Below are positions 5,366 through 14,577 of a stretch of DNA of 14,577 nt, piece by piece (position 1 is the first letter of the stretch; the number at the start of each line of letters is the position of its first letter). The translations under genes were made by a program, and so were the position numbers. The DNA is from a virus. The stretch lies in UHGV virus genome UHGV-1333726, one strand, 5' to 3'. The notes under the pieces are model-generated. The model saw only the letters and a list, made by a program, of their open reading frames with translations, ran no database searches and was not told the origin of the DNA.

Positions 5366-5558
5366 TGTCTTTATTCCGTCCGTAAATATGTACTGGCTCA
5401 ACCGGTACGGCTGGCAATTCACCATCATTTAACGCGCTTGCCATGCCTAATATTAAACGCGCTTCAGCACCAGTGACTTTCTTACACCATGCACCGCCTG
5501 TTTTATCTTCGAACAAGATAACAGCAAACTGATCGTTTATTTCCAGCTTATCCATCAT
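5352..5558 (-). CDS. hypothetical protein (68 aa)
   Basis: ATG 5558 overlaps the TGA of Q (ATGA); second ATG at 5555. Confidence 0.5.
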   Translation of the reverse strand: MMDKLEINDQFAVILFEDKTGGAWCKKVTGAEARLILGMASALNDGELPAVPVEPVHIYGRNKDNENT

Positions 5559-6049
5559 TCACCCCGTGTTACTCGTTTGATTTCGTTGTCAGCCCGCGCC
5601 TCTTCTTTGAACAATTCAGCAATGGCGTCTTCATAGAAAGCGCGGTATTTCTTCCACCACGTTGATCGGCTTACCGGGAAAACAAGCTGATTAACCGCCC
5701 GCCGTACAAGATCTACAGGGAAACGCGAGTACCCGCGCCCGCCGCAATGCTGGCACGTTTTGAACACTGGCATTTCCGCCGCTTCACTGGCTGCTTTATC
5801 CGGTACTTCGCCACGGCCCTTGCATTGTTTACAATGATTGCGAACTGTCCCATGCCCCTTGCATTTTTTGCAAAGGTGTTTTTCTCCGTATTCGTCAAAC
5901 GTAAATTTATATCCGCCGCACTCCATACAAGTTTTTTCCGTCGCGGCACTCTGGCAATAATCCCGAAATGCGAAAACGGCAACAAGAATAATGAGATCAT
6001 TGCGTTTGGCCTCGTCCAGTTCCATAACGTATTCATAATCTTTTGCCAT
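5555..6049 (-). CDS. Q: late-gene antiterminator Q, zinc-finger (82/QuuD-like) type
   Basis: ATG 6049 with AAGGG upstream (ORF-track start 6073 is TTG); FAFRDYCQSAATEKTC, CQHCGGRGYSRFPVDLVRRAV and C-terminal ...STWWKKYRAFYEDAIAELFKEEARADNEI resemble recalled Q82/QuuD-family motifs; position downstream of ninG/rusA/ninH-like genes fits. Confidence 0.7.
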   Translation of the reverse strand: MAKDYEYVMELDEAKRNDLIILVAVFAFRDYCQSAATEKTCMECGGYKFTFDEYGEKHLCKKCKGHGTVRNHCKQCKGRGEVPDKAASEAAEMPVFKTCQHCGGRGYSRFPVDLVRRAVNQLVFPVSRSTWWKKYRAFYEDAIAELFKEEARADNEIKRVTRGE

Positions 6050-6083
6050 AGCCCTTAAACGCTCTGTAAGCAAAACTACGGCC

Positions 6084-6218: not shown

Positions 6219-6362
6219 CTATATGGTTAACTTTTGTTCCTCCTGAATCTTATATCCAACCTTAAACACTTGTGCTATAAACAGAAGAGATATACCAAAT
6301 ATGCCAAGGATAACATCTACACTTAAGATTGTTTCACACTCAAACCCGTCTATAGCCAACAT
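6219..6362 (-). CDS. possible small hydrophobic peptide (47 aa), next to N run
   Basis: ATG 6362 directly after the N run 6371-6380; MLAIDGFECETILSVDVILGIFGISLLFIAQVF... has one TM-like segment; the longer ORF-track version crosses the N run. Confidence 0.25.
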   Translation of the reverse strand: MLAIDGFECETILSVDVILGIFGISLLFIAQVFKVGYKIQEEQKLTI

Positions 6363-6432
6363 CTCTATCGNNNNNNNNNNGATAAACGCGGTGATTTTGG
6401 GAAGTGGAATTTGAGAATAGATTCCAGATTCA

Positions 6433-6615
6433 TTACTTGCCCCCGTAACGCGCAACAAGTCTTTTGCGATCAGATATTGCTTGCACCAACTTTCTTTCAA
6501 GCTCTTTAAGCGCAAGCAATTCTCGCATGTGGAAAGCCTGTATTTGTCGCACAGTCTCTAAATCATGCTCATCGCGCTGAATATCTATTTGCAGATCTTT
6601 AATTTCGTTTTTCAT
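6433..6615 (-). CDS. hypothetical protein (60 aa), predicted helical
   Basis: ATG 6615 overlaps TGA of upstream gene (ATGA); heptad-like charged sequence. Confidence 0.45.
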   Translation of the reverse strand: MKNEIKDLQIDIQRDEHDLETVRQIQAFHMRELLALKELERKLVQAISDRKRLVARYGGK

Positions 6616-6848
6616 TTCTCTACCACCTTAAACCGAGTTTTAAAATGACCCTGCAAAAAATACTCATTTTTTGATGGGAAATACTGGACTAATCGCCATG
6701 CGTCGGCGTCGTCGAAATCCGATACAAGATCGTCTTGTAGAATGAAAGCAAAGCACCCATGCTTTATAAAACCTGAATATTTTTTACCTTCAGTGAAAAA
6801 ATCGACGCTTGATTGAGTACATTTAACAACAATGTTTATTAACTCCAT
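6612..6848 (-). CDS. hypothetical protein (78 aa)
   Basis: ATG 6848 with GGGG upstream; 26-nt overlap with rusA end. Confidence 0.5.
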   Translation of the reverse strand: MELINIVVKCTQSSVDFFTEGKKYSGFIKHGCFAFILQDDLVSDFDDADAWRLVQYFPSKNEYFLQGHFKTRFKVVEK

Positions 6849-7251
6849 TGTCGCCCCACATATCAGTTAAGTATTCATTAATATCCGGCAACATGTCGTT
6901 GCGTTCTCGCACCTTGATAAATAAGAGTCCGCCTTTTACCTTCCGGCAACGAACAAACTTCATTGCGTCAACCTGGCTGTCATCGGCCCAAAAGCCGGAA
7001 TAGGTTATAGCGTCAAATAACGCTTTCCCTATATTATCTATATCGCGTCTCCTGTTGTCTGGCGGCGCAATATAAACCGTTATTGATAACCTGCATTTTA
7101 GATTTATATCAAGATTAAAACGCCTTATGACTTCCCTCACCCATTCTCTGTATTTTTTCCCCTCCTTGCTTATATAGTTAACCCCTCTGGCGTGGCGGTA
7201 ATACCTGTTACATGATGGCGGGTAAGGCAGGATAAAAGAATATTCATTCAT
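6823..7251 (-). CDS. rusA: Holliday-junction resolvase RusA
   Basis: ATG 7251 overlaps ninG TGA (ATGA); ILPYPPSCNRYYRH...PDNRRRDIDNIGKALFDAITYSGFWADDSQV matches the RusA family signature (PWPPSNNRYY...RRDLDN...FWLDD). Confidence 0.9.
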   Translation of the reverse strand: MNEYSFILPYPPSCNRYYRHARGVNYISKEGKKYREWVREVIRRFNLDINLKCRLSITVYIAPPDNRRRDIDNIGKALFDAITYSGFWADDSQVDAMKFVRCRKVKGGLLFIKVRERNDMLPDINEYLTDMWGDNGVNKHCC

Positions 7252-7853
7252 GCCGCCTTTCTCCTTAAGGCGTCTAATTTCGCCTGATAAACTTTAATGA
7301 TCTCCTTACATTCTTCGATCGTCCATTTGTGAGTTTCGTTATTATTTTCTAATGCCTCCACCCTTTCTAATCCTATTTTTTTTATTAAATTTATTCTGTA
7401 TAACTCAACATTGCCGTCTAATACCTGATTGCAATGTCGGCATTGTAGGTTTACGTTATCCTCGTTAAATCGAAGGTGTCCGGCTGCCGCTACTGTGCGC
7501 CAGTGTCCAGCATCAGCGCCGCATTGTTCGTAATAATAAGTCCCGCAAGATATACACGGCTGACCCGCGTCACGCTCGCGTATATAAGCGTTAAAAACGT
7601 TTTGTGCCTGTTTAATCCAGTAGCTACGCGGATTTAACTGTTTCCGTTTCCGGTTGCGTTCTTCCCGCTGGCTATCACGGCGTTTCTTCCGCTCCATAGC
7701 CTTCATAGCCTTTTCACGATCGCGGCATAGCTGATCAAACTTCAGTTCTTCCAGACATTCATCGCTGCACCACGTTTGATTGTGATATTTAGGCTCAAAA
7801 AAAACGCCGCAGCATTTGCAACGGCGTCTTATAGGTTTTTTAGGGTTCTGCAT
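7248..7853 (-). CDS. ninG: NinG/Rap recombination protein
   Basis: ATG 7853 (ORF-track start 7943 is an upstream extension); RRRCKCC...YHNQTWCS...PRSYWIKQAQNVFNAYIRERD...PCISCG...HKWTIEECK closely parallels lambda NinG. Confidence 0.85.
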   Translation of the reverse strand: MQNPKKPIRRRCKCCGVFFEPKYHNQTWCSDECLEELKFDQLCRDREKAMKAMERKKRRDSQREERNRKRKQLNPRSYWIKQAQNVFNAYIRERDAGQPCISCGTYYYEQCGADAGHWRTVAAAGHLRFNEDNVNLQCRHCNQVLDGNVELYRINLIKKIGLERVEALENNNETHKWTIEECKEIIKVYQAKLDALRRKAA

Positions 7854-7867
7854 AAAAACCACCCCGA

Positions 7868-8044
7868 TTATTTTTGATTCTCTGTTTCGTTCAGCCTTTC
7901 GGCGTGTCCGGCCCTTAGCCAATGTTCTAAGCATTCGTTGCACTCGTTACAGCCTCCTTTCTTCGTGCTGCATACATTGCACATTGCACGCATGACGCTT
8001 TCTCGTTCATAGTCGTCATGCCATTGGTAATTATCAAAAGTCAT
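7868..8044 (-). CDS. ninF: NinF-like small Cys-rich protein (58 aa)
   Basis: Manually found ORF ATG 8044 to TAA 7868; MTFDNYQWHDDYERESVMRAMCNVCSTKKGGCNECNEC...; position immediately upstream of ninG and Cys-rich character as in lambda NinF. Confidence 0.5.
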   Translation of the reverse strand: MTFDNYQWHDDYERESVMRAMCNVCSTKKGGCNECNECLEHWLRAGHAERLNETENQK

Positions 8045-8161
8045 AATGCTCTCTCCTTTTCAGGTGATTTCTACGCATTTCAGCGCTGCCGGATTTTTAA
8101 AGAGCATTTTGTTTGCTTGAAGTATACAAAATGGATACACCAGAACAAGGCGAAAAGCGCC

Positions 8162-8203: not shown

Positions 8204-8962
8204 TCAGTCCGGTAAAACGCGGTCATGGTTAGCCAGGAATACAGCACGGGCAAAGCCACGCGGTGTTAGTGAGCGGATCATCTTTGTTCGTTTCGTCCTG
8301 CCTCCGGTTTTCGCCCACCCAGGGTTATCACCAGAGTTAAGATCTACAGGTCTAAAAAGCGGCTGCCTGAATCCGTTGCCGCACCATATGCAAGTTTTCT
8401 TCGTGTACGCGTCGCGCGGTGGGTAAACATCAGGGAAAGCAGGATGCTTGTCATCTTCCGGCAGGTAGCCACCGTAAGCGCAAGGATTGAAGATAAAATC
8501 CGGTTTACGCCATAGCGTTGACAGCACACCAACAGGATTCTCCACCATCCACGGCACGTTATACATGTTAGCCAGAGATTCAACCAACATTGCGTTTCTT
8601 GCCGCCCTATTCTGAAAACAAGGATCTTTCCTGTATTTATCAACGAACCAGCGAGCGCCTGACACAGCGAGATCGTCGCATGGAGGAAAGCCCAGGATAA
8701 TGTCAGGCCCTGGATAAACAGACAATTCAGGGGAGAACATTCCCAGGAAATGGCTATCAATCCAGATGTTAACGTATTCAATATTTGGATGAATGATTTT
8801 AACGCCTTCATAATCTCCGTGATTTGCGCCGTCATAGTTGAAGCAATAGCACTTATATCCAGCTTCCGCCCAATCTTTAACGGCGTACCCGCTGCCGTCG
8901 TACAGCGACCACACCACCCAACTTCTAAGCCAATTATTTAACCAATGTTTAGCCCTGCTCAT
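8204..8962 (-). CDS. compact C5-methyltransferase-fold protein (putative DNA cytosine-5 methyltransferase-like enzyme)
   Basis: ATG 8962 overlaps TGA of upstream gene (ATGA); motif I-like LYDGSGY (res 21-27), GFPPCDDLAVSGAR (res 91-104, cf. M.HhaI GFPCQAFSISGK) and VENP (res 140-143, ENV-like) in canonical order and spacing; only 252 aa, no obvious QRR or target-recognition domain. Confidence 0.6.
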   Translation of the reverse strand: MSRAKHWLNNWLRSWVVWSLYDGSGYAVKDWAEAGYKCYCFNYDGANHGDYEGVKIIHPNIEYVNIWIDSHFLGMFSPELSVYPGPDIILGFPPCDDLAVSGARWFVDKYRKDPCFQNRAARNAMLVESLANMYNVPWMVENPVGVLSTLWRKPDFIFNPCAYGGYLPEDDKHPAFPDVYPPRDAYTKKTCIWCGNGFRQPLFRPVDLNSGDNPGWAKTGGRTKRTKMIRSLTPRGFARAVFLANHDRVLPD

Positions 8963-9462
8963 TTTCTACCCTCAAACGTGAAATAGCGGCGCATAATGAT
9001 GGTGATCACCGTTACCGCTGCCATTTTTGAGATGAATTGCATAGCTGATATTTCCGGCATAAATGCCATAAACGATAGCGTAGGAAAAATTAACGCATCG
9101 CCGATGGCGGACGCTATATTTGCAGGCCAGCGTTTCGAATCGAAATCACCAGGTAAAACCCGGTAAACGCCGCCAGAAATAAGCGCACCGGAAACAACCG
9201 CAACGAATGACGCGATCGCCACCATTCCTGCGTCGTAATTTATCAGCACCGTGATTGCGCCAGCGGCGGCGCATGTTGTAGCCGACCATTTCAGACCGCC
9301 GTCATATAACAGAAAGTCGCGGATCATCATATTGACACACACGGCGGCTACCGTGGTGATCGGAATTACCCACGGGCCGCAGTGGTTAACAATAAGGTTG
9401 ATGATCACAAAAACGGCGACATAAACGCAGGCTAATAACCTGTCAATCGTCACCCTTTCCAT
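8959..9462 (-). CDS. polytopic membrane protein, VUT/YhhQ-like (putative queuosine-precursor transporter family)
   Basis: ATG 9462 with GAAGGA upstream (ORF-track start 9537 would overlap upstream gene by 95 nt); about six hydrophobic segments; NIASAIGDALIF resembles the recalled YhhQ C-terminal motif; family assignment tentative. Confidence 0.45.
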   Translation of the reverse strand: MERVTIDRLLACVYVAVFVIINLIVNHCGPWVIPITTVAAVCVNMMIRDFLLYDGGLKWSATTCAAAGAITVLINYDAGMVAIASFVAVVSGALISGGVYRVLPGDFDSKRWPANIASAIGDALIFPTLSFMAFMPEISAMQFISKMAAVTVITIIMRRYFTFEGRK

Positions 9463-9934
9463 TTTTATGATCCTTCGGTGTATACAATAAAGCCTCTTTA
9501 TTAAACCGCCAGCCGTTACCAAGCTGGAAGCTACCATTCATTATTACTTCACCACTAGCGATTAGGTCGCCTGGTATTGAGGTTTTCTTACAGCGGCAAT
9601 TTAACGACATATCAAAATCACCCTGTTTTTTCTTTTGCTCTTCCTCCCGCTCCGCTAATATTTGCTCCGCTTTTAGCGCGTTGTAAGCAATAAGGTCTAT
9701 GAGAGTGTCGAGCGGATCGCTTCCATTGCTTAAAATGGCCTCTAATCGCGCCTCCTTGAGGCAAATCATTAGATCCCATACATCAAGCGGGGTTAAACTT
9801 GTCCCCTTCTTAGCGTTGTAAATAGTGGCTATTTTTGGCGCTGATTTTTCTTCTTTTCGATCGTATCCGTTTTGTTCTCCTCTTGCCTCGATAGTTTCAG
9901 CCGCAAGTCTCAGCAATTCAGCCGCTTTATTCAT
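9443..9934 (-). CDS. hypothetical protein (163 aa), helical N-terminal domain
   Basis: ATG 9934 with GAGGTG upstream, 2 nt after dam stop (ORF-track start 9952 overlaps dam); conserved-looking LTPLDVWDLMICLKEARL segment; no family assigned. Confidence 0.55.
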   Translation of the reverse strand: MNKAAELLRLAAETIEARGEQNGYDRKEEKSAPKIATIYNAKKGTSLTPLDVWDLMICLKEARLEAILSNGSDPLDTLIDLIAYNALKAEQILAEREEEQKKKQGDFDMSLNCRCKKTSIPGDLIASGEVIMNGSFQLGNGWRFNKEALLYTPKDHKNGKGDD

Positions 9935-10466
9935 TTTCTGCACCTCTTGCATATAGCTCTTTACGTGTTATCTGCGTGAAAATACATTCATGTCTGCATC
10001 GTGGATGCCAGATCAAGAACAAGCTCCCTTTATTGTTTCCACTTGCTGGTTTACCTGTTGCAGCATTGATAAACGCCAGCCGCCCGCGCGTGATTAATCG
10101 GCATTCGTTTGCAGTCTCCACGCCGTTCATAAACCAGCTAACAGAAATGTCAGCGGGCAACAACATCACGCAACCGATGTGATTCCGTTGATGTTCGAGC
10201 GCCGCTTTATCAATAAATGGACCCGGATTTGAGTATGGCGGATTCATCCATACATATTCGCCAGGCATTGCCACCGCTCCCCACGGATAAGTAAGCGTGT
10301 CCATTTCTTCGGTTATATATCGCGGGATTAATGCGTTTGCCTTGTTTGCCGCCACGTCAGCGACAAATTCAAACTCGCGGTCCATTCCTCTAAAAACTGG
10401 TTTAGGTGTCTGCCACAGGTCTTTAATTTCCTTCGGTGTGCTGCTGCCTCCAAAATCATTTTTCAT
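9927..10466 (-). CDS. dam: phage Dam-family DNA N6-adenine methyltransferase
   Basis: ATG 10466 with AAGGGGGG upstream; N-terminal DLWQTPKPVF...FEFVADVAA and catalytic VWMNPPYS (NPPY variant of DPPY) are signatures of the phage Dam family. Confidence 0.85.
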   Translation of the reverse strand: MKNDFGGSSTPKEIKDLWQTPKPVFRGMDREFEFVADVAANKANALIPRYITEEMDTLTYPWGAVAMPGEYVWMNPPYSNPGPFIDKAALEHQRNHIGCVMLLPADISVSWFMNGVETANECRLITRGRLAFINAATGKPASGNNKGSLFLIWHPRCRHECIFTQITRKELYARGAENE

Positions 10467-10940: not shown

Positions 10941-11114
10941 CTAAACGTCCTCAATCACACCGCCTTTCACGCGCTCTTTAATATCCCATACGTGAGGCTT
11001 GCATATTTCCTGATAATAGTGATCCGGCCTGCTGCCGAAATACCATTTGCCATCCATATAAAAATAAACGCCAGAAAAATTTCCTGGCGCTGCCTTTGTT
11101 GTCATGATATACAT
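10941..11114 (-). CDS. hypothetical protein, 5' end uncertain (abuts N run)
   Basis: Manually found frame ending TAG 10941; first ATG 11114 but frame stays open upstream into the N run 11129-11138. Confidence 0.3.
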   Translation of the reverse strand: MYIMTTKAAPGNFSGVYFYMDGKWYFGSRPDHYYQEICKPHVWDIKERVKGGVIEDV

Positions 11115-11156
11115 AGGTGCAGCCCCGANNNNNNNNNNTTCCAGTCTTTATAGTGT

Positions 11157-13652: not shown

Positions 13653-13949
13653 TTAATCGTTAATGACCTGGCCCATACGCCCGCGATATTTGCGCATACG
13701 TGGATCGACATATTCAGGCCAATGCATATCCGGTTTTCTTTGCAGTGGGTAAAAACTTGCCTGCCAGTTGTCGAACCATATTTGTTTTGCGTACAGGTCA
13801 CTAAATCTTTTTGCCATCCGTTCCGCTGCCGTTCCGCATAAAAAAAGCCCATGATCGATATGATCACGGGCTTCTTTGAGAACTTGCTCTTTTGTTCGCG
13901 GTGGCGGTGGCGTTTTTAAATAATCAACCATCGCTAACCACCTCGTCAT
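13653..13949 (-). CDS. hypothetical protein, start uncertain
   Basis: ATG 13949 with GAGGGAG upstream (alternatives 13976, 13931); contains a PPPP stretch. Confidence 0.5.
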   Translation of the reverse strand: MTRWLAMVDYLKTPPPPRTKEQVLKEARDHIDHGLFLCGTAAERMAKRFSDLYAKQIWFDNWQASFYPLQRKPDMHWPEYVDPRMRKYRGRMGQVIND

Positions 13950-14445
13950 GCGCGTTGGCTCCCTCACCATGCTCATTGTGCCACGCTCGATGGCAAATAG
14001 GACAAAGCCACATAACGTCTAACGGCTTATCATAATCGCAATGGTGAGCGTGCACGCGTTCGCTTCTTCCGCATACTTCGCAAGGTTGTTTGACCAGCTT
14101 GCCGTCACGGATGGCATTTCCTACCATTATTTCAGCGTGCCTTTTCTTTGGGTTACTTCCCTGCCATTTATCCCTGCTTCTTTTCATCGCTTCCTTGCCT
14201 TTTTCAGTTTGCTGATACTTTCTTTTCATCTCCTTTCTTTCTTCCGACTGGTCTCTTATTTTGTCGTATTCCTTATAGTGCTCTTTGTTTTCTTTGTAAT
14301 TATTTTTGACATCTCGTTTTGTACACTCCTTGCATTTATTTAAATAGCCATCAGCCATTTTTTTATGTTTATAGAAACAAGAAAGGGGCAATAACGCCCC
14401 GCATTTAAAACATTGTTTATAGTGCGTAAATTCTGTGTTTTCCAT
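13924..14445 (-). CDS. HNH endonuclease with N-terminal zinc ribbon
   Basis: ATG 14445; C-terminal VHAHHCDYDKPLDVMWLCPICHRAWH is a canonical HNH motif; N-terminal CFKCG...CKEC; the ORF-track extension to 14574 is the alternative frame of the ssb tail. Confidence 0.8.
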   Translation of the reverse strand: MENTEFTHYKQCFKCGALLPLSCFYKHKKMADGYLNKCKECTKRDVKNNYKENKEHYKEYDKIRDQSEERKEMKRKYQQTEKGKEAMKRSRDKWQGSNPKKRHAEIMVGNAIRDGKLVKQPCEVCGRSERVHAHHCDYDKPLDVMWLCPICHRAWHNEHGEGANAHDEVVSDG

Positions 14446-14577
14446 ACTGCAACCCCACGTAACCGAATGGAATCGAATCATCAAAATCCATTGGCGGCTC
14501 TTTATATCCACCGCTATGACTCTGCTGTTGCTGTCCTGCATCATTGCTGCCACCTTTGCCGCCAGTAAACTCAAAGT
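14417..14577 (-). CDS. ssb: single-stranded DNA-binding protein, C-terminal fragment (5' end beyond window) with atypical extension
   Basis: Frame entering from the window edge reads ...GGKGGSNDAGQQQQSHSGGYKEPPMDFDDSIPF (Gly/Gln-rich linker plus acidic tip like E. coli SSB ...PPMDFDDDIPF) but continues GYVGLQYGKHRIYAL before TAA at 14417. Confidence 0.5.
   Translation of the reverse strand, partial: FEFTGGKGGSNDAGQQQQSHSGGYKEPPMDFDDSIPFGYVGLQYGKHRIYAL

Follow-up and report, generated by a model that had tools for sequence, protein, structure and literature searches.

The gene at positions 8,204-8,962 (minus strand) of the virus genome UHGV-1333726, analyzed here as a stretch of 14,577 nt that we refer to as the window, encodes a 252-aa protein that is best explained as an orphan, phage-borne DNA cytosine-C5 methyltransferase dependent on S-adenosylmethionine (SAM) and belonging to the compact family PHROG 757, a reading to which we assign a probability of roughly 0.65. 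A preliminary description of the sequence had proposed that this open reading frame (ORF) encodes a minimal or non-canonical enzyme of the C5-methyltransferase fold. The minimal architecture is real and that part of the proposal stands; no evidence for non-canonical chemistry emerged, and the protein proved to be a stand-alone member of a common, named family.

Database comparisons indicate that the ORF (252 codons plus a stop) is a genuine gene and not a chance reading frame, because its best relatives reach E=6e-164, because about 1,195 clusters match it, and because it matches the PHROG 757 profile ('DNA methyltransferase') with E=2.5e-86 (289.8 bits; protein residues 3-249, aligned to positions 3-222 of the 247 in the profile). 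More than 7,500 proteins matched among the 8,000 candidates scored, and the cluster count derives from an exhaustive search of 50%-identity cluster representatives at E<=0.001, with 101 of the matching clusters reaching E<=1e-30. The ATG (8960-8962) shares bases with the TGA of the membrane-protein gene upstream as ATGA (8959-8962), and a Shine-Dalgarno-like sequence precedes it (Table 1).

The family is widespread. A tblastn search detected it in 1,527 of 50,697 phage records, whose hosts were Escherichia (576), Klebsiella (521), Salmonella (107), Shigella (41), Vibrio (26), Arthrobacter (13) and others. The median length of its members is 232 aa (268 sequences), with PHROG 757 ranging from about 225 to 260 aa, and the BFVD models of family members superpose at template modelling (TM) scores of 0.8-0.9. 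Members listed under PHROG 757 and pVOG VOG4567 comprise mEp021_33, KP36 gp74 and a 'site-specific DNA-cytosine methylase' of Vibrio phage Vc1. The gene is a further copy of this catalogued family, which PGAP names 'DNA cytosine methyltransferase', and the window protein is a direct member, with the same length, motifs and stand-alone organization and nothing essential different. Compared with the rest of PHROG 757, the clade of the window protein carries a 15-residue N-terminal extension and D96 instead of T96. Published papers list the family gene merely as a predicted anti-restriction methylase (PMC7789013, PMC10100988, PMC8594841). As a separate observation, a compact C5-methyltransferase-like domain is also found inside two very large uncultured-phage proteins in BFVD, A0A6J5SE15 (1397 aa; Foldseek E=5e-11) and A0A6J5NPY6 (1126 aa; E=1.6e-9), both annotated as 'Helicase/UvrB, N-terminal', which suggests methylase-helicase fusions.

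The AlphaFold model of the 252-aa protein (predicted local distance difference test [pLDDT] score 89; predicted TM score [pTM] 0.88) presents a predicted SAM-dependent methyltransferase Rossmann fold with C5-methyltransferase topology. Its best structural match is DNMT3 (DNMT3A/DNMT3B; PDB 6u8p and 5yx2), and the matches ranked after these are EhMeth, ZMET2, M.MpeI, a Shigella Dcm-like protein, M.HaeIII, DNMT1, DNMT5 and Dnmt2. The topology of the model and the DNMT3 match bear out the fold assigned in the preliminary description. Sequence identity to the DNMT3A/DNMT3B catalytic domain is only 15-20%, and DNMT3, unlike the window protein, has R-x-R in motif VIII, possesses both motifs IX and X, assembles with DNMT3L into a tetramer and has domains that read chromatin; the likeness implies no evolutionary link beyond the superfamily.

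At the sequence level, three relatives exceed the PF00145 gathering score (24.7-28.5 bits; cutoff 22), over profile positions 4-94 only, corresponding to motifs I-IV. An hmmsearch of PDB with the family profile retrieved DNMT3B, M.HaeIII and DNMT2 weakly (E 0.25-1.8), its hits as a whole (E 0.16-1.8) likewise reaching across motifs I-IV only, and a phmmer search of PDB with the window protein itself returned no match. When the family profile was aligned by hhalign to M.HhaI and to the phage carboxymethyltransferase CmoX, significance was attained for the N-terminal half only, or not at all. A permissive hhalign comparison with the M.HhaI group was collinear at four points: beta-1/motif I, P-P-C with P-C-Q, E-N-P with E-N-V, and F-x-P-x-E-Y-G-G with N-A-x-D-Y-G-I-P. 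The M.HhaI sequence was checked against 10mh and that of CmoX was taken from the S-B43 genome; the M.HhaI relatives gathered to deepen the canonical profile each had an identity of 71% or more and added little.

Residue conservation was evaluated in 57 close relatives (51-93% identity) and in 104 full-length cluster representatives (31-58% identity). The strings quoted in the preliminary description are all present in the translation, with LYDGSGY at residues 20-26, GFPPCDDLAVSGAR at 91-104, ENP at 141-143 and CIWCG at 191-195. In motif I, Y21-D-G23-S-G25 pairs with F-A-G-L-G of M.HhaI and follows the family pattern F/Y21-x-G23-x-G25, in which G23 is invariant in the subfamily and variable in the wider family. 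In motif IV, the candidate nucleophile Cys95 pairs with C81 of M.HhaI and C98 of CmoX, and F92 of F92-P93-P94-C95 is found in 93/104 representatives. The preliminary description had made the assignment depend on Cys95 and Glu141 being conserved in homologues. Both are invariant in the 57 close relatives; in the wider set, Cys95 is kept in 98/104 sequences (Ser in 5) and the motif VI residues E141, N142 and P143 in 103, 94 and 102, respectively. Residues invariant in 57/57 include P94, C95, E141, N142, P143, R152, K188, T190, W193, R230, S231, R235 and N245.

The occurrence of PPCD instead of PCQ, which had been put forward as unusual, is confirmed as a fact and loses its weight as a sign of novelty. 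It is a clade peculiarity within a family whose consensus is F-P-P-C-T-D-L (T96 in 53/57 close and 89/104 wider relatives), and it is not diagnostic, since motif IV reads P-C-N-D-L-S in DNMT3B and P-C-S in CmoX and a residue other than Gln after P-C is not unusual.

In common with M.HhaI, M.HaeIII and E. coli Dcm (PF00145), the window protein has a Rossmann-type catalytic domain, motifs I, IV and VI in the same order, and a D-Y-G block. In contrast, those enzymes are 320-480 aa long and possess a recognition domain of 80-200 aa, Q-x-R-x-R, motif IX and the G-N of motif X, none of which the window protein has in canonical form. As the preliminary description had stated, and as the sequence and the family alignment confirm, no Q-x-R-x-R follows ENP. 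The recognition region spans only about 30 aa. A family-specific insert at residues 160-189, PCAYGGYLPEDDKHPAFPDVYPPRDAYTKK, opens with E/A-Y-G-G (residues 162-165), the counterpart of the canonical D-Y-G-(I/V)-P, and is conserved at P160, Y166, H173, P174, D184, Y186 and K188. Within it, a 20-residue insertion, Y-L-P-E-D-D-x-H-P-x-x-P-x-x-I-P-x-R-D-A-Y, stands in place of the Q-x-R-x-R segment, and collinearity suggests that Y186-x-K188-x-T190 occupies the corresponding place. Little or no variation is seen at Y186, K188, T190 and W193, and C194 is not conserved.

The CIWCG string had been regarded as a special element, an interpretation that the family alignment does not sustain: it is the window protein's version of a beta strand with consensus C-(I/L)-W-(T/C)-G located after the motif VIII position. 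Most relatives carry Thr or Val in place of its second Cys, which rules out a metal-binding or CxxC element. The recognition region that follows contains conserved G-N-G-F-x-M-P and K-L-G-G-K-S blocks with a variable stretch between them. With about 27-35 residues (196-222/230), conserved across the family rather than variable, it does not have the properties of the variable target-recognition domain that canonical enzymes carry between motifs VIII and IX.

The protein ends in a conserved block, T-K-x-I-R230-S231-x-T233-P234-R235-G-F-A-x-A-V-F-x-A-N245, followed by a median of 7 residues. By its identities (R-x-x-T-P-R-x-x-A-R/K), this block resembles motif IX, as in R-V-I-T-P-R-E-A-A-R of 3g7u and R-K-L-H-P-R-E-C-A-R of M.HhaI. 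By its position and secondary structure, it resembles motif X, with a short helix and a long terminal helix in a protein that starts directly at beta-1. Sub-profiles of the C-terminal and middle regions gave nothing significant in hhalign, the alignments to motif IX and to motif X being alike non-significant. Provision of a missing motif X by a neighboring gene was also considered and was rejected, as the genes on either side encode a NinF-like protein of 58 aa and a protein with six transmembrane segments.

By homology with M.HhaI and DNMT3, we infer a mechanism in which the target cytosine would be flipped into the enzyme pocket, Cys95 of the F-P-P-C loop would attack C6, and Glu141 of E-N-P would protonate N3. 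SAM would bind to the Rossmann domain on its motif I-III side, the SAM methyl group would be moved to C5, and beta-elimination would free the enzyme. The roles of M.HhaI Arg165 and Asn304 would fall to other invariant residues, for which R152, K188, R183 and R230/S231 are candidates. A canonical large domain cannot serve in DNA recognition; the DNA is probably read by the insert 160-189, the flexible loop at about 196-222 and the catalytic loop, possibly as a dimer like DNMT3. The analyses establish the fold, the family membership, the residue conservation and the gene context, and from these a catalytic protein that uses SAM and acts on DNA with a given specificity is inferred.

Several points weigh against a SAM-dependent DNA cytosine methylase. 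The 252-aa protein has no match in Pfam, even at E up to 10, and none in NCBIfam, so that by sequence, and with no recognition domain, it falls outside the Dcm/M.EcoRII family. Acidic residues D42 and D67 of the wider family (D in 93/104 and 66/104, respectively), putative residues of motifs II and III that would bind the ribose and adenine of SAM, are replaced in the window subfamily by N42 (invariant) and W67 (53/57), a variant that the clade shares with the enterobacterial-phage branch of PHROG 757; acidic residues occur two positions later in the subfamily (D/E44 in 52/57; D69 in 48/57). With Q-x-R-x-R replaced, the alignments reveal no counterpart of M.HhaI Arg165, which holds the cytosine O2. 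Only one of motifs IX and X is present, and the G-N dipeptide of motif X is absent from the family block. Finally, searches of the full-text literature yielded no experimental or biochemical study of any family member, and the closest approach to functional data, which concerns Webervirus KP36 and is discussed below, is confounded by the Dcm of the host and by differing hosts, with its site-avoidance pattern taken from one genome.

Because Q-x-R-x-R, G-N and the recognition domain are lost and yet Cys and Glu are kept and R152, K188, T190 and R230-S231 are invariant, the family might embody a new minimal solution to base flipping and cofactor binding, either through a different donor (for example, host carboxy-SAM yielding 5-carboxymethylcytosine) or through unprecedented recognition (for example, an obligate dimer without a recognition domain). 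We regard this as unlikely. If it were true, an unrecognised DNA mark or a novel minimal design of methylase would be present in more than 1,500 sequenced phages, among them therapeutic phages of Klebsiella and E. coli.

A more specific form of the donor argument is that the protein uses the C5-methyltransferase mechanism to transfer a non-methyl group, such as the carboxymethyl of CmoA-made carboxy-SAM, leaving 5-carboxymethylcytosine or another C5 adduct. The precedent is CmoX, a phage DNA cytosine C5-carboxymethyltransferase (PDB 8yf3) whose signature is S-P-P-C plus Arg350 at the position of M.HhaI Asn304 (PMC12783734). CmoX is a 372-aa protein that has a complete recognition domain, Q-A-R-E-R, motif IX and motif X, in contrast to the 252-aa window protein, which has none of these in canonical form. 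The motif in the window family is F-P-P-C and not S-P-P-C, and the CmoX signature is not demonstrably present. Pairing of I-R230-S231-x-T-P with V-G-R350-M-V-P by hhalign was non-significant (E=0.48) and left the Arg one position off, and the block aligns at least equally well to motif IX, in which case Arg230 would be irrelevant. P-P-C cannot serve as a hallmark of carboxymethyltransferases, as it is common in ordinary C5-methyltransferases, including M.HaeIII with G-G-P-P-C-Q. Likewise, DNMT3 has G-R at motif X and yet uses SAM.

Gene context and host range also argue against the transfer of a carboxymethyl group. CmoX genes typically adjoin CmoA, and the order cmoA, ligase, cmoX was seen directly in the S-B43 genome. 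In contrast, no cmoA, amide ligase, TET/JBP or glycosyltransferase gene lies beside the family members in seven genomic contexts, namely the window and six other phages (Hanrivervirus vojen, Vequintavirus pangalan, Webervirus VAC112 and KP36, Phapecoctavirus anhysbys and one Vibrio phage). A linked hypermodification pathway was rejected on these grounds, and with no hypermodification or alternative-cofactor partner in these contexts, the suggestion of the preliminary description that the protein could be something other than an ordinary Dcm-like methylase finds no support. Furthermore, the family also occurs in Arthrobacter phages, whose hosts, to our knowledge, are not expected to make carboxy-SAM. 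We consider transfer of a non-methyl group quite improbable.

In the six other phages, the family gene is a stand-alone ORF whose neighbors are helicase, primase, polymerase or NinB genes, or small early genes, and neither a second methylase subunit nor a conserved partner gene accompanies it there. These results bear on the possibility that the protein does not methylate DNA in vivo at all, acting instead on RNA or tRNA (like Dnmt2) or on free nucleotides, serving as a weak DNA-binding or regulatory protein, or depending on a partner. The loss of canonical motifs would fit such a role. Conservation of Cys and Glu across about 1,200 clusters nevertheless points to retained catalysis, no conserved neighbor could supply a subunit, and the gene is grouped with a Dam gene and genes for DNA replication. 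In addition, Dnmt2 keeps all ten motifs, and the window protein resembles it no more than it resembles the enzymes acting on DNA. We judge a protein without DNA methylase activity in vivo to be very improbable.

Hints of activity and target come from Klebsiella phage KP36, whose gp74 (NC_029099, 47552-48244, minus strand; annotated 'DNA methyltransferase') falls in the subfamily of the window protein, to which it has 50% identity (BLASTP E=4e-68). KP36 DNA was found to be uncut by EcoRII at all 155 CCWGG sites, and the podovirus KP34, which has no methyltransferase gene, was cut by every enzyme of the same panel (Kesik-Szeloch et al., PMC3620542). The authors saw no cytosine methylase in KP36 and credited the EcoRII resistance to host Dcm (PMC3620542). 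Because gp74 belongs to the compact C5-methyltransferase family, this 2013 conclusion probably needs revisiting.

The site content of the KP36 genome was also analyzed. CCWGG (155 observed, 156 expected; ratio 0.99) and GATC (ratio 0.95) are not avoided, the latter being protected by the phage's own Dam. Several palindromes are nearly absent, with observed versus expected counts of 0/27.5 for GGWCC, 0/22 for GGCGCC, 0/19 for CCCGGG, 1/20 for CCGCGG, 1/17 for GCCGGC, 2/23 for TCGCGA and 4/22 for GCGCGC. This pattern is circumstantially consistent with protection of CCWGG and speaks against CpG-wide or GpC-wide methylation. On the same circumstantial basis, the KP36 data would suggest that the target is a defined site including or overlapping CCWGG, so that a Dcm-like target is possible; the protein's chemistry and biological use are presumed to match those of M.HhaI, M.HaeIII and Dcm. 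Separately, CCSGG is over-represented in KP36 (129 observed, 80.5 expected).

The same counts bear on whether the protein might be an active 5-methylcytosine (m5C) methylase of very relaxed specificity, modifying CpG, GpC, CC or nearly any C and conferring blanket protection. Such behavior would accord with the recognition region of about 30 residues, with the high conservation of the C-terminal half across phages of many hosts, which fits one shared simple target, and with DNMT3, the best structural match, reading CpG only with a small recognition domain. The near elimination from KP36 of palindromes with CpG and GpC (TCGCGA, CCGCGG, GCGCGC, GGCGCC and GCCGGC) would be unexpected if all such sites were protected. 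Furthermore, blanket m5C would expose a phage to McrBC-type restriction. We regard relaxed specificity as an unlikely alternative.

Judged from DNA comparisons, the window is the nin-like early part of a temperate coliphage of the mEp021 type, with about 90% identity to the early-right region of mEp021-group temperate coliphages (mEp515, mEp021, mEp010 and others). The orthologue mEp021_33, in similarly conserved surroundings (about 90% DNA identity), is annotated 'putative DNA cytosine methyltransferase', and the paper on the mEp021 group names the gene merely as a putative methyltransferase (PMC11893012). Phage mEp044 carries a homologue with about 92% amino-acid identity (tblastn). DNA-level matches were found in 30 of 5,426 complete genomes, and prophages of three complete E. 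coli chromosomes hold near-identical copies (99.3-99.5%), which PGAP labels 'hypothetical protein' or 'DNA cytosine methyltransferase'.

The genes on the minus strand run in the order Dam, DUF6378, the six-transmembrane-segment protein, the C5-methyltransferase gene, NinF-like, NinG, RusA, Q antiterminator and lysis genes (Table 1). The gene closes the early nin-like block, in which it is preceded by a gene for a Dam-type adenine methylase, and this position points to a likely role in anti-restriction DNA methylation. The protein would be expressed from this early block together with Dam, and would methylate replicating phage DNA and, in lysogeny, the host chromosome, likely leading to escape from m5C-sensitive restriction enzymes. 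A terminator is annotated 3' of the gene in mEp021; a simple terminator scan of the window found no counterpart, the sole visible hairpin downstream being a weak 4-bp GGCG/CGCC at about 8149-8161.

Table 1. Features of the window discussed in the text, with coordinates and supporting evidence.
Feature	Position	Strand	Basis
Coding sequence, compact protein of predicted C5-methyltransferase fold	8204..8962	-	ORF list; PHROG 757 match; AlphaFold model; mEp044/mEp021 homologues
Shine-Dalgarno-like GAGGGT, 5 nt upstream of the C5-methyltransferase ATG	8968..8973	-	Sequence; equivalent ribosome-binding site annotated in mEp021
Motif I, residues 18-25 WSLYDGSG, putative cofactor-binding loop after beta-1	8888..8911	-	Aligned to FxGxG of M.HhaI, CmoX, DNMT3B, DNMT2 and M.HaeIII
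Motif IV, residues 91-104 GFPPCDDLAVSGAR, putative catalytic nucleophile Cys95 (codon 8678-8680)	8651..8692	-	Aligned to PCQ/PCN/PCS of M.HhaI/DNMT3B/CmoX
Motif VI, residues 141-143 ENP, Glu141 codon 8540-8542	8534..8542	-	Collinear with ENV of M.HhaI in hhalign
Family-specific conserved insert, residues 160-189 PCAYGGYLPEDDKHPAFPDVYPPRDAYTKK	8396..8485	-	hhalign against M.HhaI; pLDDT 92-97
Motif VIII position, residues 186-195 YTKKTCIWCG	8378..8407	-	Model strand 190-195; conservation
Vestigial recognition region, residues 196-222	8297..8377	-	pLDDT 64 at residues 211-220, the lowest-confidence loop
C-terminal conserved block, residues 223-248, motif IX or X	8219..8296	-	Helices 224-231 and 235-248 (model); conservation
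Phage Dam-type N6-adenine DNA methyltransferase, first gene of the block	9927..10466	-	Pfam PF05869 E=3e-51; phrog_111
DUF6378 protein, overlapping the Dam gene and the membrane-protein gene	9443..9952	-	Pfam E=2.4e-7
Membrane protein with six transmembrane segments, upstream gene in the same transcription unit	8959..9537	-	ORF list; mEp021_32 annotated with six transmembrane segments; phrog_4899 (unknown function)
NinF-like protein, 58 aa	7868..8044	-	ORF list; mEp021 annotation; PHROG
NinG	7248..7943	-	Gene-order annotation
RusA	6823..7251	-	Gene-order annotation
Q-type antiterminator	5555..6073	-	PF03589
216-aa protein, phage endonuclease families	13924..14574	-	phrog_2340 E=3.3e-48; weaker HNH and endonuclease VII matches

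As an anti-restriction methylase, the gene would be a routine component of a temperate coliphage, already labelled as a cytosine methylase in databases. The broader interest lies in the family, whose members (about 225-252 aa) are among the smallest proteins of the C5-methyltransferase fold and are devoid of elements held to be essential in M.HhaI-type enzymes, namely Arg165, Asn304 and the recognition domain. An account of how they would flip, hold and select a cytosine would be instructive for enzymology and for the engineering of small methylation tools. Furthermore, many of the more than 1,500 sequenced phages that carry the family are therapy candidates (Webervirus, Drexlerviridae and rV5-like phages), in which its specificity bears on host range and restriction escape.

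Several minor observations concern neighboring genes. The membrane-protein gene, which spans 8959-9471 (170 aa) with the mEp021-equivalent start, is not found beside the C5-methyltransferase gene in the other phages examined. Pfam Vut_1 (PF02592), to which the YhhQ-type transporters of queuosine precursors belong, gives a full-length match with its product that stays below threshold (E=0.24; residues 16-160 aligned to positions 6-149 of the 152 in the profile), and this possibly VUT-like gene sits between two DNA methylase genes. The PHROGs label 'phosphofructokinase' on families related to the DUF6378 protein looks like a propagated misannotation. The Q antiterminator also matches the DnaJ-type CxxCxGxG zinc finger PF00684 (E=3.5e-6), below the gathering score, and the 216-aa protein listed last in Table 1 weakly matches Lar-like restriction-alleviation proteins (phrog_5558, E=5e-6). 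Lastly, runs of X in the ORFs at 6219-6515 (minus strand) and 10992-11153 (plus strand) point to short runs of masked or unresolved N at about 6370-6390 and 11130-11150.

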